Of a DNA stretch of 24,757 bases, positions 1 to 24,757 are shown one piece after another. The position numbers and the translations under genes are program-made. The notes beneath the pieces were generated by a model. That model made no database searches and was not told where the DNA came from. It saw only the letters and a list, made by a program, of their open reading frames with translations. The DNA comes from a virus (lineage: Duplodnaviria; Heunggongvirae; Uroviricota; Caudoviricetes): positions 1 to 24,757 of IMG/VR virus record IMGVR_UViG_2648501797_000006; one strand, 5' to 3'. Numbering within the stretch: position 1 is the first letter of the stretch; each line of letters starts with the position of its first letter.

Positions 1-135
1 TCAAAACATGTAAAGCCTTGCAAGCCATTGCGAGGCCTTATGTGTCTCAGTTTTGTCCCACCTTGTATTACGACTTGCATAGCCAATGAAGATAAACGTG
101 ACGACAAACGGCGCAGCAGTCTTCTTTTCCTTCAT
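1..135 (-). CDS. Possible small hydrophobic protein (44 aa, MKEKKTAAPFVVTFIFIGYA...); speculative
   Basis: In-frame ATG at 133..135 (complement) preceded by GGGGA; stop at 1..3; one hydrophobic helix-length segment. Lies inside the longer 1..345 track ORF. No recognised family. Confidence 0.2.
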   Translation of the reverse strand: MKEKKTAAPFVVTFIFIGYASRNTRWDKTETHKASQWLARLYMF

Positions 136-295
136 ACTTTCCCCACCCAGCATGCATACCTTTATGCCATAACTGAAGTTTATGTCTGTTATGAGCGAGG
201 AGCGGAAGTCCGCAATTGTTCTTGCAACTAGGGCAGCTAAAAGACATGGCAGGCAAATGTCTACATGTAGGATACACCTGCTATCATAAAGAATC

Positions 296-1075
296 TTAGT
301 CCTGAAGCATTTTAACTTTCTTCTCATGCTTTTTATATTCGCCATTTATCCATTCAGGTTCTTCCCGAATAGCTGATCGCATACAGTGTGTTGGGATATC
401 ATTCCAGAAAGCTGTAATCGCATCTGCAAACTCTATAAACTGTGTTTCTGTAACCTCAAGTTGCTCATGACGTAGACTAAATCTATAGCCTCCTGGAATA
501 TTGATATCCTGATAATACTCAGGATGCGCGATGGAAAGCTCCCGATGGGCATGGCCATCACCGTGCTTATAAACATTGACTACTTGGCGACAGGCATCGA
601 TTTTTTCGTAATAAGCCTTGCCGGTGATATCCATCCCAACCCATTCTAGAATTTCAATTAGCCTTGGGAAGCCGATGTCCCAGATCATCGATGTTACGGG
701 TTTAGAGTCGAGCCAATGGCTGAATTCACGGATACACTTTTCTCGAAGTTCCTTATCGAACTGGTGAAACATTCCTGCTGTCAGAGCAAGTGAAACCGTA
801 TTTTTCATATCACTGAGGGCAATCCAATGTGAAATTCCTTCATCATGAGCCTGTTCCCAGATAGCCCCCTCGTCGTCATAATCGGGGTCAAAACGCTTAC
901 CGGCGGCCTCATAGTAATCTTTTTCTTTCTGCCGAGCTTCAGCTTCAAGATCAGAATCGCTAAACTGCGAAAATAAACGTTTTCTGGCTTCAGAAACATA
1001 AAAATTGTGTTTGTCGAGGAAGTAAGCCCGATCAATGGTTGCAAAATAAAAAAGTGAAAAATCTTTTTCGCTCAT
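296..1075 (-). CDS. Hypothetical protein, 259 aa, no family recognised (candidate prophage cargo)
   Basis: Track ORF 296..1153; likely start is the ATG at 1073..1075 (MSEKDFSLFYF...), preceded by AGGGAG. Stop TAA at 296..298. Contains HGDGHAHRELSIAH (an Rx5H spacing). Confidence 0.6.
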   Translation of the reverse strand: MSEKDFSLFYFATIDRAYFLDKHNFYVSEARKRLFSQFSDSDLEAEARQKEKDYYEAAGKRFDPDYDDEGAIWEQAHDEGISHWIALSDMKNTVSLALTAGMFHQFDKELREKCIREFSHWLDSKPVTSMIWDIGFPRLIEILEWVGMDITGKAYYEKIDACRQVVNVYKHGDGHAHRELSIAHPEYYQDINIPGGYRFSLRHEQLEVTETQFIEFADAITAFWNDIPTHCMRSAIREEPEWINGEYKKHEKKVKMLQD

Positions 1076-1451
1076 GGGGATCTCCCTCGTTTCGTCAGTT
1101 CTACAAGCCCTTGGAAGTAGGCTGCTAATAAAGAAAAGATTACATTTGAACAACTGTGCAAGATAGCAGTACGCCTAAAGGTAGTGCAAGTATCCCAACT
1201 AAGGTAACGATGCGTTTTCAAATATATAACTTAACGCTCGCGATATCCGCTTCTGGCACGAGGCGGACAGAACATGTGGACATGACGTCAGCTCTAAGCG
1301 AGGAGCTGATGCTAGCGGGGTAGGTTCAGTACAATCATAGGAGAGATCCAAAGTGTGCAGACACTGACTAAATTAAAGAAAATAGCATCTACGCTATATG
1401 GATATTAATAATGTCTATGACGAATATCATTATACGGGTAATGACTCCAAC

Positions 1452-1955
1452 TTATTGATAGTGTTTTATGTTCAGATAATGCCCGATGACTTTGTCATGC
1501 AGCTCCACCGATTTTGAAAACGACAGCGACTTCCGTCCCAGCCGTGCCAGGTGCTGCCTCAGATTCAGGTTATGCCGCTCAATTCGCTGCGTATATCGCT
1601 TGCTGATTACGTGCAGCTTTCCCTTCAGGCGGGATTCATACAGCGGCCAGCCATCCGTCATCCATATCACCACGTCAAAGGGTGACAGCAGGCTCATAAG
1701 ACGCCCCAGCGTCGCCATAGTGCGTTCACCGAATACGTGCGCAACAACCGTCTTCCGGAGCCTGTCATACGCGTAAAACAGCCAGCGCTGGCGCGATTTA
1801 GCCCCGACATAGCCCCACTGTTCGTCCATTTCCGCGCAGACGATGACGTCACTGCCCGGCTGTATGCGCGAGGTTACCGACTGCGGCCTGAGTTTTTTAA
1901 GTGACGTAAAATCGTGTTGAGGCCAACGCCCATAATGCGGGCTGTTGCCCGGCAT
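1452..1955 (-). CDS. insB: IS1 InsB frame (transposase made as an InsAB' fusion by -1 frameshifting)
   Basis: 167-aa frame overlapping the insA 3' end, sequence ...[27 protein letters not shown]... typical of IS1 InsB. Confidence 0.9.
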
Positions 1956-2149
1956 CCAACGCCATTCATGGCCATATCAATGATTTTCTGGTGCGTACCG
2001 GGTTGAGAAGCGGTGTAAGTGAACTGCAGTTGCCATGTTTTACGGCAGTGAGAGCAGAGATAGCGCTGATGTCCGGCGGTGCTTTTGCCGTTACGCACCA
2101 CCCCGTCAGTAGCTGAACAGGAGGGACAGCTGATAGAAACAGAAGCCAC
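1874..2149 (-). CDS. insA: IS1 InsA (91 aa)
   Basis: Translation [43 protein letters not shown]... matches IS1 InsA from memory. Confidence 0.9.
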
Positions 2150-2515
2150 TGGAGCACCTCAAAAAGACCATCATACACTAAATCAGTAAGTTGGCAGCAT
2201 CACCAATCAAACGATAGTTTGCAATGACAATATAAACGTTTTCAGTGAGTTAAGCAATACTAGGAAATTATGAGACAGATTACGTCGCCTCCACCATAAT
2301 GATTAACGAACCGTACTTTTTGCAAAGTCCGCATCTGGCACATAGCAGACCAGAGACACTGGCGTAAAGCCATGGAGGATCGGTGGGAGGAGGTAAAAAT
2401 CCTCTCATGCAAAAAATACGCAAAATCGATAACAGTTGGAAATCATTCAATACTCGCACTATCGGAAGTTCACCAGCCAGTCGTAGCACGTTCTTGCATA
2501 CGACGTGCTACGGTT

Positions 2516-2911
2516 TCATTTATCTCCGACCGGAAACCTCTTATACAAAGTCGATATGCCAATATCATAGATGATCGCCACCTTCTGGCGAGGAACTCCT
2601 GATGCAATTAATCGTCCGGCCTGTGCCCATTGTTCTGGTGTAAGTTTGGGACGTCGTCCACCAATTCGTCCCTGTGCGCGAGCAGCTTCCAGGCCAGCTT
2701 TTGTTCGTTCAACAATCAGTTCTCGTTCCATTTCAGCCAGGGCACCCATCACATGAAAGAAGAAGCGCCCCATAGGCGTACTCGTATCGATGCTATCCGT
2801 CAGGCTCCGGAAGTTAACACCTTTCTCCCGCAGTTCCTCCACTAACCCAACAAGATGTCGCATGCTGCGACCGAGGCGGTCACGCTTTCAGACCACCAGC
2901 GTATCGCCTTC
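2516..2911 (-). pseudogene. Pin/Hin/Gin-family serine DNA invertase remnant: N-terminally truncated with an in-frame nonsense codon
   Basis: Track ORF 2516..2863 gives ...RSLTDSIDTSTPMGRFFFHVMGALAEMERELIVERTKAGLEAARAQGRIGGRRPKLTPEQWAQAGRL..., an invertase C-terminal two-thirds. Reading upstream in frame gives EGDTLVV-stop-KRDRLGRSM: TGA at 2888..2890 (complement) replaces the conserved Trp of GDTLVVWKLDRLGRS. Similarity ends near 2911, so the catalytic-serine N-terminus is absent. Confidence 0.8.
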
Positions 2912-3026
2912 AGATATGCATCCTTGCTAAACTTAGATCGCCGGTCACCAACTAAGCATGCAGTATGCGTTATGTTTTTTATTGCTCCCAGGGTAATGTG
3001 TCCACTAACTAAACAAGGAGATAGTG

Positions 3027-3578
3027 ATGCTGCATACTATGAATTTCACGGTGCCCGTAAATCAGTCCACCGTTAACGCTTTAATTAGCAATTGCCTTGG
3101 AGCTATCAATCAGGGGGCGACTGAGTTAAACATTTACATTTCCAGTCCGGGCGGTGACCTCGTTGCAGGTTTTACTGCTTATCACTTTCTAAAGGCCCTA
3201 CCAATCCCAGTAAAGACCCATAACCTTAGCAATGTTGAATCAGTCGCTAATATCATTTTTCTTGCAGGGTCTGAACGTAAGGCGAATCCTGGGAGTCGGT
3301 TCTTACTGCATCCTTTTCACTGGGGCTTGATGGGCCCAAGCGTGGATCACTCACGCGTCAGTGAGTGGAGCGCGTGTCTCAATAATGACCTGGAGCGTTT
3401 TGTCGATATTTTGGAGAGTCAGATTGAGCTCAGTAAGAGCCGCAATGAGTGGAAGGAGGTTATCTCCGCCGCCACCATAGCCAATGCCTCTACAGCTCTG
3501 GATTGGGGGATGGTTCACGAGGTTGCCGCCGCCACTTACCCGCAGGCACCCGGCACATACTGGTGGATTAACTGTTAA
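3027..3578 (+). CDS. ClpP-fold (peptidase S14-like) serine peptidase-like protein, 183 aa
   Basis: AAGGAG at 3015..3020, 6 nt before ATG 3027. ...ELNIYISSPGGDLVAGFTAYHFL...SNVESVANIIFLAGSERKANPGSRFLLHPFHWG parallels ClpP ...YINSPGGVITAGMSIYDTM...GQAASMGAFLL...RVMIHQPLGG, with Ser and His at the corresponding positions. Assignment from recalled motifs only. Confidence 0.55.
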   Translation: MLHTMNFTVPVNQSTVNALISNCLGAINQGATELNIYISSPGGDLVAGFTAYHFLKALPIPVKTHNLSNVESVANIIFLAGSERKANPGSRFLLHPFHWGLMGPSVDHSRVSEWSACLNNDLERFVDILESQIELSKSRNEWKEVISAATIANASTALDWGMVHEVAAATYPQAPGTYWWINC

Positions 3579-3737
3579 CATAATTACCTCTCAAATTTAA
3601 ATTGGGCAGAGATGCCAGCATCCAGGCTCGCGCCTGGACGATTGTCTGATGATGAAAAGTGCAGTTTAATCTGTGGCTGGATTATCTGGATGCACTGGAG
3701 CTGGTTGATACCTCCAGTGCGCCAGATATTGAATGGC

Positions 3738-4148
3738 CTACTCCTCCGGCAGTTCAGGCCAGATGACATCCGGTGCGGTGCTGGTATCTGTTGCCGTCAC
3801 AGCGTCGATATAATCCAGCACAACGTTAAGTCGGGTAGTTTCTTCTTGCGTCAGTTTGCGCCCGGCCTGCAGCTTTAACTGAATCACGCTGATATTGACC
3901 ATTGCTGCGTCTATCAGCGACTGTTTTTTTTGTTCAGCGTCAGCTACCAGTTCATCATGAGAACGTTCCGGAGGGAGCGGCGCAGTAAATACCCCGTCTG
4001 AATACCCCCAGCCGATTCCGGGATGCTCACTGATATCAGAAATATCAATGAGCTGCTGATTATCCGGCACTGTGAATTCAGCCTCGCCATCCCAGACAAT
4101 GACATTCACAACCATCCCATTTTCAATAACTGCATATGACGCATTCAT
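3738..4148 (-). CDS. Tail fibre assembly protein (Tfa/gpU-like)
   Basis: C-terminus ...LDYIDAVTATDTSTAPDVIWPELPEE is the conserved Tfa C-terminal motif. Start ATG (complement 4146..4148) follows GAGGAG and overlaps the upstream stop as TAATG. Confidence 0.7.
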   Translation of the reverse strand: MNASYAVIENGMVVNVIVWDGEAEFTVPDNQQLIDISDISEHPGIGWGYSDGVFTAPLPPERSHDELVADAEQKKQSLIDAAMVNISVIQLKLQAGRKLTQEETTRLNVVLDYIDAVTATDTSTAPDVIWPELPEE

Positions 4149-4624
4149 TATGCAAACTCCTCGATAATACAAATCCCAGCAGCACCTTTCCCGCCTGTCA
4201 TACTGGTTCCGCTATAACCGGCATCGTATGCGCCACCGCCACCTGAACCATATACCTTACCACTAACACCACCGCCAGCGCCTGCGCGTCCACCGCCCCC
4301 CCAGTACGATGTTCCGCCTTCACCGCTGACGCCGATATTTCCGGACTGACCGTCGCCTCCATTTCCACCAATGATGTTGATACCGCCAGTACTTGGCACA
4401 CCGCCGTTATCGTCTTCGGTCAGCTCGCTGATGACCGAAAAATCGAACTGATAAATCAGCTCATGACGATTCAGATCCAGCAGCGTGCCGCCGTCATAAG
4501 TAATCGGGTTACCGCACGCTTCCGGGTTCCAGCCCAGAATGGCCTTAAAGAGCATCTGCCGGATATCGTCCACCACATCATACGAGGCAAACTGACCGCG
4601 CTCATCACGCCCGTTCCAGCTCTT
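4148..4624 (-). pseudogene. Tail fibre C-terminal (receptor-binding, Gly-rich) fragment lacking its N-terminal portion
   Basis: Frame is open from 4624 to stop 4148..4150 with only an alternative GTG at 4576; the Gly-rich C-terminus is directly followed by tfa. Upstream is the terminase gene, not the rest of a fibre gene. Confidence 0.6.
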
Positions 4625-6104
4625 TCATCGGGTCGGACATGTTGGTGTAGTTCTGAATGATGGTGATGGGATTCAGGTCTTCATCAGCAAGGTCATGTGA
4701 CAGCCCGGTCGCCCCGAAGGGGTCGATGGGTGACTCGCTGACCGGGCTGATTTTGTTCGCTGCTTTGGCCTCTTCGAGGATGTAGCGATAATCCACCTCT
4801 GCACCATCGGTAACGGTCAGGACGCCCATTTCCACCCATTTCTGAAAGCGTTCGGCTGTCCGGCGATCTTCATTTTTCTCGACGCTGTACACCGTGTCAT
4901 ACGGTACCCAGAAACGCGGGGCCACACTGTAGTAATGCGTTTTACCGTCAATCTCGCGGGTATAAAGTCGCGCCATGCTGTTCATATCCAGCTTACGCGC
5001 CAGGTCAAAGGCCAGAATGCACGGCTGCCCCTCGAACTGCTCAAGGGTCAGTGATTTATCCTCGCAGCTCTGCCAGCTCACCAGGTTGAAATACGCCGAA
5101 CGCGCCGACACCCAGATATTGAGGTGTTTTGTTTTAAAGACGTTTGCCAGACGGGCGTTATTTTTCGCACGCTGCTGCTGACTTAACAAAAATTCGCGAT
5201 AAACCGACACGCCAATATTTGGATTGGCTTTTTCCAGCACCTGCGGGTCGGTCCAGTCGTCACCTTCATCAACGGTATAGATGATCCCGAACAGTTCATC
5301 GTTGGGCACCGAGCCGTTGAGCATCTCGATGACTTCCCGCCGCTTGTCGTAGCACGGCCCCTCAATGTTGTACCCGGCAGTAGTAATGGCCCACATCAGT
5401 GGCTGACGTCGCGCCCCCATCCCGGTAAGCATCGTGGTGTAAAGCGCATCGGTGGCGTGCTCGTGATATTCATCCACCACCGCACAGTGGGGTGATGATC
5501 CATCACCGGGGTTACCGATCAGCGGTTCAAACCGCGCGCCATCCTCCGGACGGTTCATGTTTGAGGCGTTAACCTCAATCCCGAACGCTTCCGTCAGCAT
5601 GGGCGTGCGTTTACACATCAGTCGCGCCGGGCGAAAGACTTCCCACGCCTGTTTCTCTGTCGTGGCACCGGAATACACTTCCGCGCCAAACTCGTTATCA
5701 CAGGCAAAACAATACAGGGCGACACCGGCAGAGATTGCCGATTTGCCGTTCTTACGGGGGATTTCGGTATACACCTCCCGGAAGCGGCGCAGCCGGGAGC
5801 CTTTATTGACCCAGCCAAACGCACAGCAGATCACAAAGAGCTGCCACGGCTCCAGCGTGATGGGCATCCTCTTGAATGCCCACTCACCCTTGGTGTGCGG
5901 CAACAGCTGAATAAATTTGGCGGCTCGTTCAGCCAGGTCCTTGTCGAAGCGGTAACGAAACGACTTACTTTTTTCCGCCATCAGGTCATCAAGATGGCGC
6001 TGGCAGGCCTGAATCACAAACTGGCAGGCCACAATCTTTCCGCGAAAGACATCCCGGGCATACTGATTGGCAGCATTTACGTTGGGGTAAGATTTCCGGC
6101 TCAT
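4605..6104 (-). CDS. Terminase large subunit (Terminase_1-like, 499 aa)
   Basis: 499-aa frame; its ATG overlaps the TerS stop as ATGA (6101..6104). Placed after HNH and TerS as in HK97-type packaging modules. Confidence 0.85.
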
Positions 6105-6595
6105 GATTCGATGATTTTCAGAAACGGGTTAGTAGCTTTCTTCTGCCCCGCCAGGCCAATCAGACGCTGGCGGCTGCTGGGGTCGAGTCCGAGCATTGCC
6201 CCCGTGCTGCTCATCTCGGACTCCTGTTCTTTTTTGGCGGTCAGCTCAGGATTTTTGACCATACCGCCCATTGCACCGGTGATGGTGTTGCCCTGTCTGG
6301 CAATATTTTTCACGGCACGTCGCCAGAACTCATAGGCCACACACCACCGCTCAAGCACCGCGAGGTCAGTCACGCACAGCAGGCCCTGACCGCAAAGTTC
6401 TTTAGTTGTCAATTGCCACATGATCGTGGCGAGAGGGAGATCTTCTTCAGCGAACCACTCCGGTGGCTCAACACCTTTGATGGGCGTAAAAACAGGTTCA
6501 TCTTTATTCAGGGCTCGCTTGCCGGGGTTTCCGGCCAGCGCCTTGCGCGCCGTTGGCTTGGGGCGACGCCCGGAACGCCCCGCCGTTCCAGCCAT
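6101..6595 (-). CDS. Terminase small subunit (P27-like)
   Basis: Basic N-terminus [27 protein letters not shown]...; ATG at complement 6593..6595 with GGAG 8 nt upstream (the track used an upstream GTG). Directly upstream of TerL. Confidence 0.7.
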
Positions 6596-6720
6596 ATGCG
6601 GCACTCCTGGTTAAATTTCATTTTTCGCGGGTATAAAAAAACGATGGGGCGGGCAGTCCTGAAGACGTCAGGGTACAGAGATTTGACCCGCCCCTCCCCT
6701 CTGGCAGTGGGAACTGGTTC

Positions 6721-7071
6721 TTACTTCAGCCGTTCACGGGCCGTCTTCGCCTTATGACACGGCCAGCACAAACTCTGCAGATTACTGTCGACATCAGTGC
6801 CGCCATGCGATTTAGGGATGATGTGGTCAACGGTCTTCGCCTCACGCACCACACCAGCACGCAGACATAACTGACACAGGCCTTTGTCACGCTTCAGGAC
6901 ACGCGCGCGGATACTTTCCCACTTCGAACCGTAGCCGCGCTGATGACGGGATTGTCCAGGTTTGTATTGCTTCCAGCCTTCGCTTTTGTGGCTTTCGCAG
7001 TAGCCTGAAGGGTCCGTGGTTGTAGAGCGGCAGCCGCGAACACGGCAGGCTTTTGGGGTTCGTGGGGGCAT
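6721..7071 (-). CDS. HNH endonuclease (packaging-associated)
   Basis: Cys/His pattern C..C...HIIPKSHGGTDVDSNLQSLCWPCH typical of phage HNH proteins next to terminase genes; GGAG 6 nt before the ATG. Confidence 0.8.
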   Translation of the reverse strand: MPPRTPKACRVRGCRSTTTDPSGYCESHKSEGWKQYKPGQSRHQRGYGSKWESIRARVLKRDKGLCQLCLRAGVVREAKTVDHIIPKSHGGTDVDSNLQSLCWPCHKAKTARERLK

Positions 7072-7595
7072 ATGTACTCCAATGAAGAAACCAGCGAAAT
7101 AGCAGCCTTCATTCGTAGTAAACCTTTTTCATCAACGCAGTAATGGATTCTTTGAAGAGTCGCAATCAATACAACTCACTAATGGAGAGACTTGTCTCAC
7201 GCATGAGACAAATTTCCCGTTTGATTTAATGGACACTATAGAGGGACAGAATGCCTTCCTCACTCGAATCACATCAATTAAGGAGGTTCAACATGTTTCA
7301 TTCCACAAGTCATCAGGCTGTAATTATGGCAGCATCAGTTTGTGCCACAGACCTTTTCCGCTTCACTTTGAGCCTGATTCATTTCTACCTGACCGGCTCG
7401 CCTCTATCTTTTTAATCCCCACTTTATCCAAATTGCATTGCCAGAATGCCGACAACAGACTGACATTCAAATCCTGACTACCTCCAATAGGCTGAGCATC
7501 CACCTATATAGTTTTAATTTTCATCAATCCATTTAACTATCGTTTAATTGTTGTCACATAGGATTCTGCCGTTTTTAACAATGCAGGATAATAAG

Positions 7596-7889
7596 ATGAA
7601 AAAAATGTTGTTTTCTGCCGCTCTGGCAATGCTTATTACAGGATGTGCTCAACAGACGTTTACTGTTGGAAACAAACCGACAGCAGTAACACCAAAGGAA
7701 ACCATCACCCATCATTTCTTCGTTTCGGGAATTGGACAGGAGAAAACTGTTGATGCAGCCAAAATTTGTGGCGGCGCAGAAAATGTTGTTAAAACAGAAA
7801 CCCAGCAAACATTCGTAAATGGATTGCTCGGTTTTATTACCTTAGGCATTTATACTCCGCTGGAAGCGCGGGTGTATTGCTCACAATAA
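7596..7889 (+). CDS. bor: Bor lipoprotein (lambda bor homologue)
   Basis: MKKMLFSAALAMLITGCAQQTFTV...ICGGAENVVKTETQQTFVNGLLGFITLGIYTPLEARVYCSQ is near-identical to lambda Bor as recalled; lipobox LITGC; AGGA upstream of ATG 7596. Confidence 0.9.
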   Translation: MKKMLFSAALAMLITGCAQQTFTVGNKPTAVTPKETITHHFFVSGIGQEKTVDAAKICGGAENVVKTETQQTFVNGLLGFITLGIYTPLEARVYCSQ

Positions 7890-7920
7890 TTGCATGAGTT
7901 GCCCATCGATATGGGCAGCT

Positions 7921-8382
7921 CTATCTGCACTGCTCATTAATATACTTCTGGGTTCCTTCCAGTTGTTTTTGCATAGTGATCAGCCTCTCTCTGAGAGTGA
8001 AATAATCCCGTTCAGCGGTGTCTGCCAGTCGGGGGGAGGCTGCATTATCCATGCCGGAGGCGGTGGTGGCTTCACGCACTGACTGACAGACTGCTTTGAT
8101 GTGCAACCGACGACGACCAGCGGCGACATCATCACGCAGAGCATCATTTTCAGCTTTCGCATCAGCTAACTCCTTCGTGTATTTTGCATCGAGCGCAGCA
8201 ACATCACGTTGGCGCACCTGCATGTCAGTAATTGTCGAGTTCGCCAGCTTCAGTTCTCTGGCATTTTTGTCGCGCTGGGCTTTGTAGGTAATGGCGTTAT
8301 CACGGTAATGATTAACCGCCCATGACAGACAGACGATGATGCAGATAACCAGAGCGGAGATAATCGCGGTTAATCTGTTCAT
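7921..8382 (-). CDS. Rz: Rz i-spanin
   Basis: [48 protein letters not shown]... near-identical to lambda Rz; start overlaps the R stop as ATGA. Confidence 0.95.
7980..8162 (-). CDS. Rz1: Rz1 o-spanin, nested in the +1 frame of Rz
   Basis: [55 protein letters not shown]... matches lambda Rz1 with lipobox and Pro-rich tract. Confidence 0.9.
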
Positions 8383-8855
8383 ACCTCAATCTCTCTGACC
8401 GTTCCGCCCGCTTCTTTGAATTTTGCAATCAGGCTGTCAGCCTTATGCTCGAACTGACCATAACCAGCGCCCGGCAGTGAAGCCCAGATATTGCTGCAAC
8501 GGTCGATTGCCTGACGAATATTGCCGCGGTCAATCATCGGTAAAGCGCCACGCTCTTTAATCTGCTGCAGAGCTACAGCGTCCTGGCTTTCTGGAGAAAA
8601 ATCTTTCAGGCCAAGCTGTTTACGGTAAGCATCCCACCAGCGTGAAAGAAGCTGGTAACGTCCGGCGGCTGTTGATTTGAGTTTGGGGTTTAGCGTGACA
8701 AGTTTGCGAGGGTGATCGGAGTAATCAGTGAACAGTTCACCACCAACAATAACATCATAACCGTGGTTACGTGTCGGTTGTCGCCCGTTATCCGTTCCTT
8801 CTGACCAGGCCACCATATCAAGGAAAGCTTTACGCTGAGGATTTAGTTCCTGCAT
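8379..8855 (-). CDS. R: Endolysin R (lambda R-type lytic transglycosylase)
   Basis: ...[77 protein letters not shown]... near-identical to lambda R. Confidence 0.95.
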
Positions 8856-8858
8856 AAA

Positions 8859-9185
8859 TTACTCCTTCGAGCTACCAAACTTGTTACCGATTACTCTCAT
8901 TGCCGCACCACGAATAGCATCGACCCCGATCAGCCCCACCCCACCACCAATAGCAACAGAAAGTGATTTAGGCCATCCGACATACTCAAGCGCGGATGCA
9001 AAGGTCAGTGTCAGAGCGCCACAGAGCAAAATCTCGAGCGTTTTTCGCTTCCAGCCGCCACCGCCACCAAAATAGGCAATACGTAAACCAGCCATAACGA
9101 TCGACATAATTACTGCGCCCAGTGGTGTGTCTCCACGCCACCAGCTCTGTACCAACTCCAGCCAGGTATTTGGGTTATGAGGCAT
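8859..9185 (-). CDS. Putative holin (three predicted TM segments)
   Basis: Immediately upstream of R; likely start at complement 9183..9185 (MPHNPNTW...) after GAGGTGAG; three hydrophobic segments. Not lambda S by sequence. Confidence 0.55.
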   Translation of the reverse strand: MPHNPNTWLELVQSWWRGDTPLGAVIMSIVMAGLRIAYFGGGGGWKRKTLEILLCGALTLTFASALEYVGWPKSLSVAIGGGVGLIGVDAIRGAAMRVIGNKFGSSKE

Positions 9186-9228
9186 TTCGTCATCTCTCAC
9201 CTCGCGATATTTGCGGGTGCTGTGTTGG

Positions 9229-9254
9229 AAATAAAAAGGCCACGCAACGTGGCC
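9229..9254 (-). terminator. Rho-independent terminator between the methyltransferase and holin genes
   Basis: Perfect stem GGCCACG-caa-CGTGGCC (9238..9254) followed on the minus strand by TTTTTATTT (complement of 9229..9237). Confidence 0.6.
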
Positions 9255-9261
9255 ACCAGAA

Positions 9262-10314
9262 TTATTTCCCCACCAGTTCACTTACCTCTTTCACCGTCTG
9301 ATTAAACCGCTCTGACTCAAGTTCAACACCTAACGCCCGACGCCCCAGCGCCATTGCTGCTTTTATTGTGGAACCGGATCCCATAAAGAAATCAGCAACC
9401 AGATCACCAGGTCGACTACTGGCATTGATTATTTGCCGGAGCATATCCGCCGGTTTCTCGCACGGATGTTTACCCGGGTAGAACTGAACGGGCTTATGCG
9501 TCCAGACATCGGTATAAGGCACAGAGACTGATACGGAGAAATAGCGCCGGAGAGATTTAAACTCATCCAGCAATTCAGAATATTTGCGATTCAGTGAATC
9601 ATAAGATGCCACCAGCTGGTGGTGTGGTTGTTCCAGTTGTTGTTCCTGAAACTTCTCTGCCGCTATACGGGAAAACAGTGCCTGTAACTTCCGATAGTCA
9701 GCCTCATTCGGCAACTGCCACTGACTGGCACCAAACCAGTGGGAAACCATATTTTTCTTATCTGTGGCTTCGGCAATTTGTTTTGCCGTTATACCCAGTT
9801 CGGCACGAGCATCCCTGAAATACGATATCAGCGGTGCCATTATGTGCTGTTTGAGTTCCCTTTCTTTTGCCGCATAGTCGTCACTTTTGCCGCGATATGG
9901 CCCCTGGTAATGTTCAGCAAACAGAACGCGCTCTGTGGCAGGAAAATATGCGCGCAGACTTTCTTTATTACACCCATTCCAACGTCCGGACGGCTTCGCC
10001 CAGATGATATGGTTAAGCACGTTGAAACGTTCACGCATCATGATCTCAATATCAGATGCCAGGCGATGCCCACAGAACAGGTAAAGGCTTCCGGCAGGTT
10101 TTAACACCCGCCAGAACTGGGCCAGACAGTGGTCCAGCCACTTAAGGTAATCTTCGTCCCCTTTCCACTGATTGTCCCAACCGTTAGGTTTCACTTTGAA
10201 GTAAGGCGGATCGGTAACAATCAGGTCAATGGAATCATCAGGCAGGGACTGAATAAAATGCAGGCAATCAGCGTTGATTAAATCAACACTGTTTATTTTT
10301 ACAGTATTTTTCAT
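9262..10314 (-). CDS. Orphan DNA methyltransferase (DPPY motif, beta-class N6-adenine or N4-cytosine)
   Basis: IVTDPPYF near the N-terminus and SAM-binding FFMGSGST near the C-terminus (motif IV before motif I). No partner endonuclease recognised nearby. Confidence 0.85.
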   Translation of the reverse strand: MKNTVKINSVDLINADCLHFIQSLPDDSIDLIVTDPPYFKVKPNGWDNQWKGDEDYLKWLDHCLAQFWRVLKPAGSLYLFCGHRLASDIEIMMRERFNVLNHIIWAKPSGRWNGCNKESLRAYFPATERVLFAEHYQGPYRGKSDDYAAKERELKQHIMAPLISYFRDARAELGITAKQIAEATDKKNMVSHWFGASQWQLPNEADYRKLQALFSRIAAEKFQEQQLEQPHHQLVASYDSLNRKYSELLDEFKSLRRYFSVSVSVPYTDVWTHKPVQFYPGKHPCEKPADMLRQIINASSRPGDLVADFFMGSGSTIKAAMALGRRALGVELESERFNQTVKEVSELVGK

Positions 10315-10464
10315 GGATCAGTAAGCGTAACTCTGGTAGGCTCACTCTGCTTTTGCGCTAAAGCAGTGGGCCGTGGTTCGCTTGTGACCAGTAAGCATGA
10401 GCGAATGGCTGGCAGGTGCTACCAACACCCACCAGCCGCCCATTTTCACAGCAGGAAACCGCCA

Positions 10465-10668
10465 TTACTGGCAGCGTCTGAATTTATTCCCGTACCCGCC
10501 GTTATCCTTCGCCAGACCCGCCAGAACTAACTGAGTCAGTATTAACTGGCACCGGGCTTCGCTTACTCCGGTAGTTCTCGTCATCATGCGTGGCGTTACC
10601 CACTTGTCAGCAGGTAAGAAATGAAGGACTGCGGCGGCGGTTTCTGTCATATCTTGCTGTTTTAGCAT
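10465..10668 (-). CDS. Possible small helix-turn-helix protein (67 aa); speculative
   Basis: Internal ATG at complement 10666..10668 preceded by AGGGA; RMMTRTTGVSEARCQLILTQLVLAGL resembles a winged-helix recognition region. No family recalled. Confidence 0.25.
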   Translation of the reverse strand: MLKQQDMTETAAAVLHFLPADKWVTPRMMTRTTGVSEARCQLILTQLVLAGLAKDNGGYGNKFRRCQ

Positions 10669-10790
10669 GTCTTTTTCCCTTCTGGTTAACATGACATACC
10701 AATAACTCTTGTCTAAAAAGCCAGCAAGATAAAAAGTCAGTATTCACGACCACCAGCGTGTTTACTGTGCTGCACCAAGTTTACAGGTAC

Positions 10791-10822
10791 AAAAAAACCG
10801 CTCAGCGGCGGGTTTAAGTTGT
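10791..10822 (-). terminator. Weak candidate bidirectional terminator
   Basis: aaaaaaaCCGCtcaGCGGcgggttt: short GC stem flanked by an A-run on one side and a T-run on the other (seven Ts on the minus strand). Confidence 0.3.
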
Positions 10823-10987
10823 GTGGCGAAGTAACCACTCTTAACACAGTAATCTAGAAAATGCGGACCGCGTTAGTGATTTTTATCTGTTTTTCCATTA
10901 TTTTTTTGCCACACAGCTTAAAACGAAAAATAAAGCAGGCGTTGCCAAACCTCACGGTGACAGTTGGCTTAGAATGAGGACATATTT

Positions 10988-12007
10988 TTGGATAAGTTTG
11001 ATGAGATTCATGTAGATATTGAATCTGAGCAGCAAGCCTTCGATTTGCTTGAAAGCTATCTTGATGGTTATGGTTTACCTGACAGTTTAAGTTTCAACGG
11101 ATGGCCAAACCTTACCATCAGATTAACCGGTGAAAAATTCAACAGATCGCTAACACCTTCAGTTATGAAGGGATTTGTTGAAATGCAAGCTCAAATCAAC
11201 AAATCATATGCCCTTGCCAAGTACGGTGTCCCTGACGTCCGCAAACTGACCAAAGAAGAACTTGATGCCCTAGAAATAGAAGTTACGGTAGAACAGGGTT
11301 CTTCAATAGTAGAAATCAACATTGATGGCTTTTTAACCAAACTCACACAGGAACTTGTTGGTAAAATGAACGCAACTGAGATCATGTTTACTGTTCTCGG
11401 CGCAGCAGTCATCTGGGGCGGAGTAACAGTATTTAAACGGTTCTTGGACAACCGTAAAGATATTCGCCTTGCAGAAATTGCTAAGGATGGAGAGAAAGAA
11501 CATCTCCGGACTATGCAGATCATGAGCGAGCAAGAAACTAAACGCCTGCGGGTTATTTCAGAAATGATTGCGGAAAAACCACTTCTCGATAACATGGACC
11601 GTATGTCGTATGACGCTAAAACCCAAATGGTCAAATCCTTTGTGCGTTCAGATAACGCTCAAATTGATGGCGTTACTATTGATTCTGAAATGGCGAAAGA
11701 GTTGGTTACGAATGCTCGTAGACGTTCATCAGAAATGAGGATTGATGGTATTTACCGAATTGAAGAAGTCAATAATACTGACCCAGAGAGTTTCAAAGTT
11801 AAGGTCCGACGCGTAGATACCGACCAACGTCTAACCTGCGTAGTTCAGGATGTTTTCCTTGATGAATCCGGAAACAAAGAAGCATTGCAGCGAGCTGAGT
11901 GGGAAAGAAAGCCTGTACATTTGAGCATTAACGCAAAACACGTCGATGGTGACATTAAGTCAGCAGTAATTCTCTATGTTCGAGATGTGGAACAAAAGCC
12001 CGAGTAA
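10988..12007 (+). CDS. Hypothetical membrane-anchored protein, 339 aa, no family recognised (candidate moron)
   Basis: Only start is TTG at 10988, with GAGGA 7 nt upstream; no in-frame ATG for about 60 codons although the N-terminus reads protein-like. One central hydrophobic segment (IMFTVLGAAVIWGGVTVF) in a charged, helix-rich sequence. Visibly AT-rich versus flanks (not computed). Converges on Q, stops 14 bp apart. Confidence 0.6.
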   Translation: MDKFDEIHVDIESEQQAFDLLESYLDGYGLPDSLSFNGWPNLTIRLTGEKFNRSLTPSVMKGFVEMQAQINKSYALAKYGVPDVRKLTKEELDALEIEVTVEQGSSIVEINIDGFLTKLTQELVGKMNATEIMFTVLGAAVIWGGVTVFKRFLDNRKDIRLAEIAKDGEKEHLRTMQIMSEQETKRLRVISEMIAEKPLLDNMDRMSYDAKTQMVKSFVRSDNAQIDGVTIDSEMAKELVTNARRRSSEMRIDGIYRIEEVNNTDPESFKVKVRRVDTDQRLTCVVQDVFLDESGNKEALQRAEWERKPVHLSINAKHVDGDIKSAVILYVRDVEQKPE

Positions 12008-12021
12008 TCGGGCTTCAATAA

Positions 12022-12414
12022 TCAATCTTTAATTTCGGGGTCCATCTCTAGACTAATTTCCAGCATCGATAGGCAGCCATCAATAAACCCCTCAGCCATC
12101 TGTATCTCAATGCGTATTAGTTTCTCATCCTTTTTACGAGCCTTGGCGAGCTTTCTTTTAGAGATACCGTATAGGTAATGGGCAACAAGAAGCGAATGTT
12201 CGTCCGGCCTTTTTTGCCTTAGACGAGCAAGACAACCTTCAATAATTAATGCATCACTATCTGAACATGCCTGACGTGTTTTGCTTGTATAGGGAAGAAG
12301 CCCTTTAAACCCAGCAGCTATAGGAGAATAGTCTACTCCTGAACTATCACTCGCCGCCCATGCTCCCCAACGATCCAGAACCATTTGAATATCACGCATC
12401 AACTTTCTCCACAA
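12022..12414 (-). CDS. Late-gene antiterminator Q (phage 82/21-type Q family)
   Basis: MRDIQMVLDRWGAWAA...IAAGFKGLL... matches the Q antiterminator family as recalled; true start may be the MRDIQ methionine 5 codons in. Confidence 0.8.
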   Translation of the reverse strand: MWRKLMRDIQMVLDRWGAWAASDSSGVDYSPIAAGFKGLLPYTSKTRQACSDSDALIIEGCLARLRQKRPDEHSLLVAHYLYGISKRKLAKARKKDEKLIRIEIQMAEGFIDGCLSMLEISLEMDPEIKD

Positions 12415-14242: not shown

Positions 14243-14633
14243 TCAGGCGGCTGCACCCGCCGTTTTCTCGTACTTACTGATAGTGATCTCGACCTTCCCT
14301 TCCGGGATAACCGGTCCCCACTCCACCAGCATTCTTTTCACCTGACTGTCGTCTTCCCACACACCCGCGTGGGTCAGGGCGTCAAACAGCGCCTTGTTAT
14401 AGTTGTCCAGATCGCGGCTCCGGTTATCCGGAAGGAAACAACACGATCTCCACTGAAGCAGGTGCCGACGTTGGTTTCGGCAGACGACGTAACTGCTCAA
14501 CTATTGCTGCGCACGCCGCGCTCTGGAATTTTCGCCCCGCCGCGCTTATCAGGCTCTTACCAGCAAACGCCCCTTTGTTGGGGTGTCGCCAGTACGTGTT
14601 CACGCTGGGCGGGAAAGGCAGGATCAGCTTCAT
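14243..14633 (-). pseudogene. rusA: rusA Holliday-junction resolvase split by a 1-nt frameshift
   Basis: ORF 14424..14633 (MKLILPFPPSVNTYWRHPNKG...VEIVLFPSG-stop) is the RusA N-terminus; ORF 14243..14500 (+1 frame) carries ...FLPDNRSRDLDNYNKALFDALTHAGVWEDDSQV..., the RusA catalytic C-terminus. Shift maps to the TGTTGTTT run near 14431..14445. Confidence 0.75.
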
Positions 14634-21909: not shown

Positions 21910-22259
21910 TGGAGCCATACAGCCTCACACTCGATGAGGCCTGTCATTTTCTCAAGATATCCAGACCGACTGCCATTAACTGGATACGCACAGGGCGTCT
22001 TCAGGCAACACGCAAAGATCCCACTAAGAATAAATCTCCTTACCTCACAACACGACAAGCCTGCATTGCGGCTCTTCAGTCTCCGCTGCATACTGTCCAG
22101 GTGAGCGCGGGTGATGGCATAACAGAGGAAAGAAAATGTCACTCTTCCGCAGAGGTGAAATATGGTACGCCAGTTTCACATTGCCGAACGGTAAAAGATT
22201 TAAACAGTCTCTTGGAACAAAGGACAAAAGGCAGGCGACAGAACTCCATGACAAGCTAA
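21909..22259 (+). CDS. Excisionase/AlpA-like DNA-binding protein (xis candidate)
   Basis: AAGAGGTGA before ATG 21909, which overlaps the upstream stop as TAATG. N-terminus [31 protein letters not shown] is an AlpA/Xis-type HTH. The 3' 124 nt overlap int in another frame, so the functional protein may be shorter. Confidence 0.5.
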
Positions 22260-23299
22260 AGGCTGAAGCATGGCGGGTCAGCAAACTTGGTGAAATACCT
22301 GATATAACGTTCGAGGAAGCATGTGTCAGGTGGCTTGAAGAGAAAGCACATAAAAAATCACTGGACGATGACAAAAGCCGGATCGGATTCTGGCTTCAAC
22401 ATTTCGCAGGAATGCAACTAAGAGACATTACTGAATCAAAAATTTATTCAGCAATGCAGAAAATGACGAACCGGCGTCATGAGGAAAACTGGAGACTCAG
22501 GGCAGAAGCATGCAGAAAAAAAGGGAAACCTGTTCCAGAATACACGCCAAAACCAGCGTCCGTTGCAACGAAGGCTACGCATCTTTCATTTATAAAGGCC
22601 CTACTAAGAGCCGCAGAGCGTGAATGGAAAATGCTGGATAAGGCACCAATTATTAAAGTGCCTCAACCAAAGAATAAACGGATCCGCTGGCTGGAGCCCC
22701 ATGAAGCACAAAGGCTGATTGATGAATGTCCGGAGCCATTAAAGTCTGTTGTTGAATTTGCACTGGCAACAGGCTTAAGACGCTCGAACATCATCAACCT
22801 TGAATGGCAACAAATAGACATGCAGCGCCGGGTGGCATGGATAAACCCGGAAGAGAGTAAATCAAACCGCGCAATTGGCGTTGCGCTGAATGATACTGCA
22901 TGTCGCGTTTTGAAAAAACAAATCGGGAATCATCACCGTTGGGTATTTGTGTACAAGGAAAGCTGTACCAAACCAGACGGAACGAAAGCGCCAACAGTAA
23001 GGAAGATGCGGTATGACGCAAACACAGCCTGGAAAGCGGCGCTGAGACGGGCTGGTATTGATGATTTCAGATTTCACGACTTGAGACACACCTGGGCAAG
23101 TTGGCTGGTTCAAGCCGGAGTCCCGTTGTCAGTGTTACAGGAAATGGGAGGCTGGGAGTCTATCGAAATGGTTCGTCGATATGCTCACCTTGCACCTAAT
23201 CACCTTACCGAACACGCACGGCAAATAGACTCGATCCTGAACCCATCGGTCCCAAATTTGTCCCAATCAAAAAATAAGGAAGGTACTAATGATGTGTAA
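22136..23299 (+). CDS. int: Tyrosine recombinase (phage integrase, 387 aa)
   Basis: AGGAAAG before ATG 22136; C-terminal catalytic region with ...[42 protein letters not shown] (R, H-x-x-R, Y). Ends 15 bp from the tRNA 3' end. Confidence 0.9.
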
Positions 23300-23313
23300 C
23301 TTATTGATTTAAA

Positions 23314-23389
23314 TGGTGCCGATAATAGGAGTCGAACCTACGACCTTCGCATTACGAATGCGCTGCTCTACCAACTGAGCTATATCGGC
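23314..23389 (-). tRNA. thrW: tRNA-Thr (anticodon CGU), 76 nt with encoded CCA
   Basis: Reverse complement reads GCCGATATAGCTCAGTTGGTAGAGCAGCGCATTCGTAATGCGAAGGTCGTAGGTTCGACTCCTATTATCGGCACCA: D-loop AGCTCAGTTGGTAGAGC, anticodon loop TTCGTAA, T-arm GGTTCGACTCC. Confidence 0.9.
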
Positions 23390-23503: not shown

Positions 23504-24757
23504 TTACGCACGAATGGTGTAATCACCAATGCCGATCCACTTGTAAGTGGTCAGTGCTTCCAGCCCCATTGGGCCACGCGCGTGGAGTTTTTGTGTGCTT
23601 ACCGCCACTTCCGCACCCAGACCAAACTGGCCGCCGTCGGTAAAACGCGTAGAGGCGTTAACGTAAACAGCGGACGAATCCACTTCGTTAACAAAACGCT
23701 GGGCGTTGCGCATATCGCGGGTCAGGATCGCATCGGAGTGTTGTGTGCCGTGTTCACGAATATGGGCGATGGCATCGTCAAGATCGCTGACGATTTTGAC
23801 GTTCAAATCTAATGACAGAAACTCATCGTCATACTCTTCGGCTTTAACAGCAACCACCTTCGCAGGGCCTGCCTGCAACTGCGCCAGTGCAGCTGCATCT
23901 GCGTGTAATGTCACGCCGCTTTCCGCCATTTGTTTGCTTAATGCGGGCAGGAAGCTATCGGCGATGTTTTTATTCACCAGCAACGTTTCAACCGTATTAC
24001 ATGTGCTCGGACGCTGAGTTTTCGCGTTGACGATCACTTTTAATGCTTCAGCGATCTCTACACTTTCATCAACGTAAATATGGCATACGCCTATACCACC
24101 TGTGATCACCGGGATTGTCGACTGTTCACGGCACAGTTTATGCAAACCAGCGCCACCACGCGGGATCAGCATGTCGATGTATTTATCCATACGCAGCATT
24201 TCACTGACCAGCGCACGGTCAGGATTATCAATCGCCTGCACGGCACCCGCCGGTAAGCCGCAGGATTTCAGGGCGTCCTGAATCACCGCCACCGTTGCAG
24301 CGTTAGTGCGACACGTTTCTTTGCCACCGCGCAGGATCACCGCATTACCGGTTTTCAGGCACAGCGAAGCGACATCAACCGTCACGTTCGGGCGCGCTTC
24401 ATAAATCACGCCAATAACCCCCAGCGGTACGCGACGACGCTCAAGACGCAGGCCGCTGTCCAGTACGCCGCCATCGATTACCTGCCCCACCGGATCGGCG
24501 AGGTTACACACCTGGCGCACATCGTCGGCAATGCCTTTCAGCCGTGCGGGCGTCAGTGCCAGACGGTCAAGCATCGCTTCGCTAAGGCCGTTGGCACGCG
24601 CGTCAGCAACATCCTGCGCGTTAGCGTTGAGGATGATTTCGCTTTGTGCTTCCAGTTCATCGGCTATTTTTTCCAGTACGCGATTTTTTTCGCGGCTGGA
24701 GAGTTGCGCTAATTTATACGAGGCTTGCTTCGCGGCAATGCCCATTTGTTCCAGCAT
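23504..24757 (-). CDS. proA: Gamma-glutamyl phosphate reductase ProA (417 aa, start codon at the window edge)
   Basis: [38 protein letters not shown]... is E. coli ProA as recalled; stop at 23504..23506. Confidence 0.95.

Follow-up and report, generated by a model that had tools for sequence, protein, structure and literature searches.

Two junctions link a truncated large terminase gene to a tail-fibre remnant in a defective prophage

A gene for the large terminase subunit (TerL) that stands next to what looks like the end of a tail-fibre gene raises the question of whether the phage was built in this order or has lost the genes in between, and, if they were lost, where the joins lie and how they were made. 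The window, which is the whole stretch of 24,757 nucleotides analysed here, contains such a locus, and an earlier note on this DNA had placed a deletion junction at 4576-4640, with TerL abutting a tail-fibre C-terminal fragment. Comparison with an undeleted relative indicates that the window very probably carries a recent loss of the morphogenesis region at two breakpoints, which were rejoined by illegitimate recombination. The features of the locus are listed below from TerL onward, and the lost segments are given in coordinates of the reference region L004.

4605..6104, minus strand: truncated TerL, 499 codons, of which 497 are native and 2 are out of frame (R, A), followed by a stop at 4605-4607
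4614/4615: junction J1, which joins TerL codon 497 to the interior of the tail-terminator gene with a 2-bp TT overlap; L004 18801-24010 lost (5,210 bp)
4410-4615 (206 bp), minus strand: internal piece of the SfV orf9 homologue, the tail-terminator gene, keeping its native orientation and reading frame (codons 75-143 of 186)
4408/4409: junction J2, which joins the tail-terminator fragment in frame to the fibre module with a 2-bp TA overlap; L004 8475-18594 lost (10,120 bp)
4148..4621, minus strand: open frame of a chimera in which terminator residues 75-143 run on in frame into fibre residues 118-203
4148..4407, minus strand: remnant of the fibre C-terminal module, the last 86 codons and the stop, glycine-rich
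3738..4172, minus strand: tail-fibre assembly chaperone (tfa), Pfam Caudo_TAP (E = 1.5e-20) and phrog_188, kept downstream of the fibre remnant

As judged from its sequence, the element is an SfV/e14-type prophage, a type with an HK97-like head and a Mu-like tail, integrated at tRNA-Thr(thrW)/proA. L004 is the annotated region of E. coli 123636 (NZ_CP158323.1) that was used as the reference, and it contains the closest relative found, which is not proven to be the ancestor. This prophage (3,839,952-3,878,753) is 38.8 kb long and lies between a 48-bp attL repeat and tRNA-Thr(thrW), adjoining proA. In the L004 annotation its head set is full (portal, HK97-type protease, capsid and connectors), and so is its Mu-like tail set (terminator, sheath, tube, tape measure and baseplate). 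Its fibre/invertase end is itself already degraded and contains pseudogenes. On the integration side, the window has the following features.

22136-23299: integrase, Pfam Phage_integrase
23312-23359: tRNA-Thr with the attR core

A search of the whole window gave no copy of attL. In L004, the end of the 48-bp attL repeat is 66 bp past the counterpart of window base 1, and by this comparison attL would lie just outside the window.

Alignment to an intact related prophage, which the earlier note had proposed for mapping and sizing the deletion, divides the window into three ungapped collinear blocks (blastn).

Window 1-4409: L004 4066-8474
Window 4410-4615: L004 18595-18800, 100% identical
Window 4616-24757: L004 24011-44152

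The three blocks have identities of 99.95-100% and E-values of 0 to 1e-107, and gapless matches of this quality to one relative mean that the junction pattern is not due to chance. There are 11 mismatches in total, 3 of them in the prophage (about 23 kb) and 8 clustered in proA. With only 3 SNPs separating it from an undeleted relative, the deletion is recent and private to its lineage. The fibre/tfa segment and the TerL segment, which are 100% and 99.7% identical in E. coli 123636, are about 15.5 kb apart there, and the total loss of 15,330 bp is the exact difference in length between the window and L004 loci.

The breakpoints were placed by the boundaries of the blastn blocks and by a three-way alignment of the window with both parental sites. 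In this alignment the parental sites share 2 bp at each junction and no longer repeat. BLAST had given a 5-bp overlap at J1 by placing a 1-nt gap where the alignment ends; direct inspection shows this to be an artefact and gives 2 bp. A true breakpoint, J1, thus lies inside the interval 4576-4640, as had been proposed, but the locus has two junctions and not one, and J2 falls 168 bp outside that interval.

The open reading frame of TerL, which runs on the minus strand from 6104 to 4605 and encodes 499 aa as first described, matches the Pfam models TerL_ATPase and TerL_nuclease. Its ATPase domain is complete (PF03354, positions 1-174 of 178, E = 2.7e-26), and its nuclease domain is incomplete (PF20441, positions 4-225 of 286). 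The earlier note had left it undecided whether a protein of 499 aa is full length. Full-length TerL has 577 aa in SfII, vB_EcoM-720R4 and E. coli 123636, and in a residue-by-residue comparison the window protein is identical to the 577-aa TerL through residue 497, after which it continues as R-A-stop in a foreign frame. TerL is therefore not full length, with 497 native residues out of 577, and its last 80 residues are gone.

The nearest solved homologue is the HK97 TerL (PDB 6Z6D, E = 4.7e-25). The catalytic centre of the HK97 TerL nuclease is formed by D302, D388 and D471, and K463 reaches into the site (PMC9410871). The numbering of the 6Z6D chain appears to be 10 residues off that of the paper, since a single shift of this size accounts for all four of the residues named. 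In the alignment with 6Z6D, D302 and D388 correspond to D367 and D461 of the 577-aa E. coli TerL, which are kept in the window, while K463 and D471 correspond to K536 and D544, which are in the deleted tail; the region of D544 has the motif KIDGAVAL. The window protein is thus like the HK97 TerL in its ATPase domain and in the first two nuclease aspartates, which are conserved, but it ends before the equivalents of K463 and D471. With these equivalents in the lost tail, the RNase H-like nuclease site would be incomplete and the nuclease is predicted to be inactive.

The sequence that follows TerL directly is not the fibre fragment that had been described there, but the 206-bp piece of the tail-terminator gene. 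This piece matches E. coli 123636 at 100% and SfV orf9 at 97.6% identity, and window positions 4408-4615 are 96.6-97.6% identical to the interior of orf9 of SfV and of its homologues in SfII, SfI and SfIV. The gene orf9 is located just upstream of the tail sheath gene. The tail terminator domain PF23840 (Phage tail terminator protein) is not full-length in the window, which keeps residues 75-143 of 186, and the first approximately 70 codons of the chimeric frame match this model at positions 81-141 of 150 and phrog_209 at positions 79-148 of 163.

The fibre remnant, which makes up the rest of this frame, is identical to the end of a 203-aa "glycine-rich domain-containing protein" of L004, and it matches the extreme C-termini of phrog_6202 (555-636 of 636) and phrog_454 (1285-1376 of 1376). 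In strain CFIAFB20180511 the module is 99.1% identical and ends a tail-fibre gene of 759 aa, which is followed by a tfa gene; as the C-terminal end of that gene, the module is a genuine fibre module. The N-terminal part of the fibre protein, which would include the baseplate-attachment and shaft region, is absent together with a proper start, and terminator sequence stands upstream instead. The next coding sequence after TerL is therefore an in-frame terminator-fibre chimera and not, as had been proposed, a tail-fibre C-terminus.

The observation that the next frame opens at 4624 without a proper start holds. The chimeric frame opens after a stop at 4622-4624 and runs to 4148, with 157 codons. 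It lacks a convincing start: translation could begin only at a GTG at 4576 or at an internal ATG, no clear Shine-Dalgarno sequence accompanies either, and the gene caller chose the internal ATG, which gives 135 aa. Any two coding pieces that are joined by accident have a one-in-three chance of being in frame. The terminator-fibre frame is probably a functionless by-product of an accidental fusion.

With the two segments, 20 structural (head/tail) genes were lost entirely and 3 were truncated (TerL, tail-terminator and fibre), according to the L004 annotation. The deletion at J1 removed the last 80 TerL codons and codons 1-74 of the tail-terminator gene, and with them ymfR, the portal, protease and major capsid genes and four head-completion/connector genes. 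The deletion at J2 took the final 43 codons of the tail-terminator gene and codons 1-117 of the glycine-rich fibre module; lost entirely with them were a DUF2635 gene, the genes of the sheath, tube, tape measure, tail assembly protein and DNA circularisation protein, four baseplate genes, ymfQ and stfP. Comparison with L004 thus bears out the earlier statement that portal, protease, capsid, tail and fibre N-terminus are absent, and the element is a defective, virion-incompetent E. coli-type prophage of 23.4 kb.

The retained part contains the integrase, a CI-like repressor (HTH_3 and Peptidase_S24) with Cro, an HTH_36 replication-initiator-like gene, the Q antiterminator, an N6/N4 methyltransferase, a holin, an endolysin (GH24 in L004), Rz, Bor/Iss, HNH and the small terminase (TerS). 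The lysis, replication and immunity genes, which had been said to look intact, do appear so, since their sequences, and that of Q, are virtually the same as in the E. coli 123636 prophage. The gene rusA is frameshifted in both the window and L004. A PADLOC scan of neighbouring unknown genes for defence systems gave only the methyltransferase. Next to TerL, the packaging module is kept as follows.

6101..6604, minus strand: TerS of the P27 / Terminase_4 family, PF05119 (E = 2.4e-21), approximately 97% DNA identity to SfV/SfII TerS, intact
6605..6720, intergenic: putative cos end near window 6662, to which the first base of the linear SfV and SfIV records aligns
6721..7071, minus strand: HNH endonuclease of the packaging module, Pfam HNH (E = 7.6e-17), annotated as HNH endonuclease in L004, kept

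The alignment of these two linear records suggests that the cos end lies near 6662.

These gene contents bear directly on the reading in which nothing was lost and the window represents a functional phage type, with a naturally short terminase followed by a short fibre-like gene. By length alone a TerL of 499 aa is plausible, as HK97 TerL has approximately 504 aa (the 514-residue 6Z6D chain minus a 10-residue tag, the length of which we infer). The identity of the window TerL to the 577-aa protein up to codon 497, where it leaves the frame, argues against a native short protein, as do the missing third catalytic aspartate and the next frame, which begins in the middle of a tail-terminator gene. 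An intact relative with a terminase directly followed by a short fibre gene, which would have spoken for this order, was not found: the intact relatives examined (SfII, vB_EcoM-720R4 and E. coli 123636) all have TerL, then a small gene, then the portal. Capsid and tail genes are missing from the whole window, and the native arrangement is effectively refuted, with next to no probability left to it.

A loss of genes could also be apparent, if both junctions were chimeras made by the assembler and the real genome had a full morphogenesis region. The distribution of the junctions would fit this: J1 and J2 are both missing from the 5,426 complete E. coli genomes, in which the junction-spanning queries were never covered to 80% or more, and the exact 32-nt sequences of J1 and J2 have no match in GTDB species-representative genomes or in JGI metagenome contigs. 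In the same set of complete genomes, TerL is uninterrupted across the J1 site in 1,369, and an intermediate allele with J1 only or J2 only is present in none of the 5,426. Apart from the window, the exact 499-aa TerL is on record only in a 14.6-kb Logan contig from the public run ERR11565178, which matches window positions 2177-12104 with 1 mismatch over 9,928 bp and carries both junctions collinearly. Both junctions are thus read-supported by a second assembly, which does not by itself prove an independent lineage; the source of the contig may be the same or a sister isolate, or even the window's own reads. The breakpoints have no repeats that could mislead an assembler, with overlaps of only 2 bp, and an island of 206 bp between two joins is not a typical pattern of misassembly. 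An assembly error has scarcely any probability against this evidence, and the junctions are derived and rare, seen in a single lineage.

For a real deletion, the first question is which process made the joins. Homologous recombination between repeats is ruled out, as the parental sites share 2 bp only. Enzymes of mobile elements are the next candidates, and two such elements, located 1.5-3 kb away, are kept in the window.

1452-2149: IS1
2516-2863: invertase remnant without the N-terminal catalytic part, matching only positions 79-144 of the Pfam Resolvase profile

Serine invertases of the Pin/Gin type cut with a 2-bp stagger. An invertase of this type acting on pseudo-crossover sites would therefore fit the 2-bp overlaps at both junctions, and a native gix/pix-like site (ATCTCCCAAACCAAGGTTTTCGAGAG, L004 8837-8862) is located inside the deleted DNA. 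Scored against a hix/gix consensus, this native site reaches 17 of 22, whereas the four parental breakpoints score 1-7 of 22, against a background with a mean of 5.4 and a 95th percentile of 9. The pseudo-site idea was rejected on these scores, and the invertase gene in the window also lacks its catalytic part. An adjacent deletion by IS1 was rejected as well: no junction touches IS1, which is more than 2.2 kb from J2, no IS end is present at the junctions, and the IS1 insertion is at a position common to the undeleted relative. Both the IS1 insertion and the truncation of the invertase are identical in the undeleted E. coli 123636, and a deletion by either enzyme is highly improbable.

The preferred reading, a loss by illegitimate recombination, would start with breakage or template switching, followed by homology-independent joining at the 2-bp microhomologies. 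At J1 the TerL gene, cut after codon 497, continues in the middle of the tail-terminator sequence, and at J2 the surviving 206-bp piece runs into the last 86 fibre codons. Both joins could stem from a single complex repair or template switch, in which a short collinear stretch survived, or from two successive deletions. The native order and orientation of the 206-bp island fit both courses, and the two junctions with the collinear island may represent a single template-switching or end-joining event. The repair mechanism is read here from the junction sequences, and an overlap of 2 bp is barely above chance for any pair of sites. In E. coli, deletions of 13-35 kb are formed at microhomologies after chromosomal double-strand breaks (PMC4872102), and LigA-dependent end-joining with deletions of up to 40 kb is cited in that paper (Chayot et al. 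2010, in PMC4872102). The result is a TerL without its last 80 residues, whose nuclease is predicted to be dead, the removal of the 20 head/tail genes, and a virion-incompetent 23.4-kb prophage, which may still be able to excise, replicate or lyse.

Whether such a remnant was kept by selection is a separate matter. It could be a helper-dependent cos "satellite" that keeps cos, TerS and HNH to hijack the capsids of a related phage, or a domesticated lysis cassette triggered by the SOS response. These three packaging elements are indeed retained, as are the genes for integrase, repressor, replication and lysis, and all are essentially unmutated. The 3 SNPs that separate it from a complete relative leave no time for visible selection, the element is found in one lineage only, and the breakpoints cut genes at arbitrary positions. 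By analogy with the cos packaging limits of lambda, a molecule of approximately 23.4 kb, or roughly 60% of the 38.8-kb unit, would be below the expected packaging range. A satellite of the PICI-like kind would be expected to have a conserved gene set of its own, found again in other lineages and adapted to hijacking a helper phage; the window contains a near-identical deletion derivative of a full prophage in one lineage. A selected functional element is thus very unlikely. There is a slightly larger, still small, chance that the remnant, with its complete lysis cassette, is SOS-inducible and kills its host without producing particles, or that it is mobilised by a co-resident SfV-type helper supplying TerL and virion proteins; if this were true, it would represent a satellite-like element at the moment of its birth.

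The case is a new instance of the well-known decay of prophages by internal deletion, ordinary and recent. Its value is mainly for annotation, and the deletion scar opens no new biological question: the 499-aa "terminase" and the 135-157-codon "fibre" open reading frame are pseudogene fragments that should be flagged, and the prophage should be scored as defective. As a nearly identical undeleted relative exists, the locus is also a clean and dated example of the loss of a morphogenesis region in an E. coli prophage, with homology-independent joins, 2-bp overlaps and a small retained island.

Among the known systems, the E. coli 123636 prophage shares with the window the integration site, the IS1 insertion, the truncated invertase, a ClpP-like gene, and the early, lysis and packaging genes, with 3 SNPs over the shared approximately 23 kb. 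It differs by having all 15,330 bp of head/tail genes, the 577-aa TerL, and neither junction.

SfI, SfV and relatives are viable phages whose integration site is thrW, beside proA; SfI and SfV use the cos mechanism of packaging, and SfV, SfII, SfI and SfIV carry gtr serotype-conversion genes (PMC3636060). The window is similar to SfV, SfII, SfI and SfIV in TerS and TerL, with DNA identities of 97.0-97.7% over positions 4611-6700, and in the thrW/proA attachment. The SfV-type phages differ from it in being viable and in having the 577-aa TerL, after which come a small gene and the portal, protease and capsid genes. The fibre C-terminal module of the window has no match to SfV, SfII, SfI or SfIV among the DNA matches listed.

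The cryptic prophage e14 of E. coli K-12, which has 97.3-97.5% DNA identity to L004, is of the same phage type and has two internal deletions of its own that fuse gene fragments, with block overlaps of 3-4 bp. Its annotation describes ymfN, an oweE'/aaaE' chimera, as a "chimeric replication protein/phage terminase" and includes remnants of beeE and jayE (beeE'/jayE'). One of its joins links a replication gene to TerL, with about 10.6 kb lost, and the other links the portal to baseplate J, with about 12.7 kb lost. Like the window, e14 has a truncated terminase and a fibre/tfa/invertase end and keeps its integrase and repressor, but it lost the N-terminus of TerL, while the window lost the C-terminus. 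It keeps ymfR, the start of the portal, the segment from baseplate J' through ymfQ, and stfP, whereas the window lost everything from ymfR to stfP; the lysis genes, Q and the TerS region, which the window retains, are absent from e14. The e14 element is located at icd and the window element at thrW, and e14 is the closest, tested and older precedent for the deletions in the window.

The damage to the serine invertase gene is shared with E. coli 123636 (NZ_CP158323.1), whose 38.8-kb prophage is a near-identical relative without the 15.3-kb deletion of head and tail genes. The features concerned, and the protease gene next to them, are the following.

1452-2149, minus strand: IS1 element with insA and insB ORFs, a few hundred bp from the invertase gene.
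2516-2863, minus strand: serine invertase gene lacking its N-terminal catalytic part (coverage of the Pfam Resolvase profile starts at position 79).
3024-3578, plus strand: gene of a ClpP-like serine protease of 184 aa (Pfam CLP_protease; phrog_94, head-maturation-protease-like).

Since the invertase truncation and the IS1 arrangement are identical in strain 123636, the comparison of the two sequences shows that the truncation preceded the 15.3-kb deletion. The ClpP-like gene, which is also found in strain 123636 and has no match in PADLOC, has the tail-fibre assembly gene on one side and the truncated invertase on the other, and is on the strand opposite to both. It occupies the place expected for an invertible fibre segment's second half.

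Four other genes of the prophage are listed here.

296-1153, minus strand: ORF of 285 aa, phrog_19541 (unknown function).
7548-7889, plus strand: gene of a Bor/Iss serum-resistance lipoprotein.
10988-12007, plus strand: ORF of 339 aa, with phrog_6191 (unknown function) as its sole match.
14243-14633, minus strand: rusA-like gene broken into a pair of ORFs, of 85 aa and 69 aa.

The 339-aa ORF, antisense to the late operon and located between the Q antiterminator and DNA methyltransferase genes, is possibly a cargo gene or moron. The 285-aa ORF occupies the extreme left of the prophage, next to and on the inner side of the attL position deduced from the prophage in strain 123636. Neither ORF matches anything in Pfam or PADLOC. 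The Bor/Iss gene, flanked by the lysis cassette and an HNH endonuclease gene, is kept in the defective element. The rusA-like gene carries a frameshift annotation in strain 123636.

Eight of the 11 differences from strain 123636 fall within 172 bp of chromosomal proA (24506-24677) and just three within about 23 kb of prophage, a distribution that points to either another host background or a tract of recombination adjoining a nearly identical prophage.

Both internal deletion junctions of the cryptic prophage e14 of K-12 (region L007) map precisely onto the complete relative in strain 123636 (region L004).

L007 9402-9404: e14 junction joining L004 24902 and 35550.
L007 11136-11139: e14 junction joining L004 10505 and 23165.

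Where the TerL breakpoint of e14 falls in L004, the site (TGATCCATCACCGGGGTTACCGATCA, centre 24903) matches 16 of the 22 scored positions of the invertase crossover consensus, the second highest score in the locus, which is probably a coincidence of palindromic sequence.
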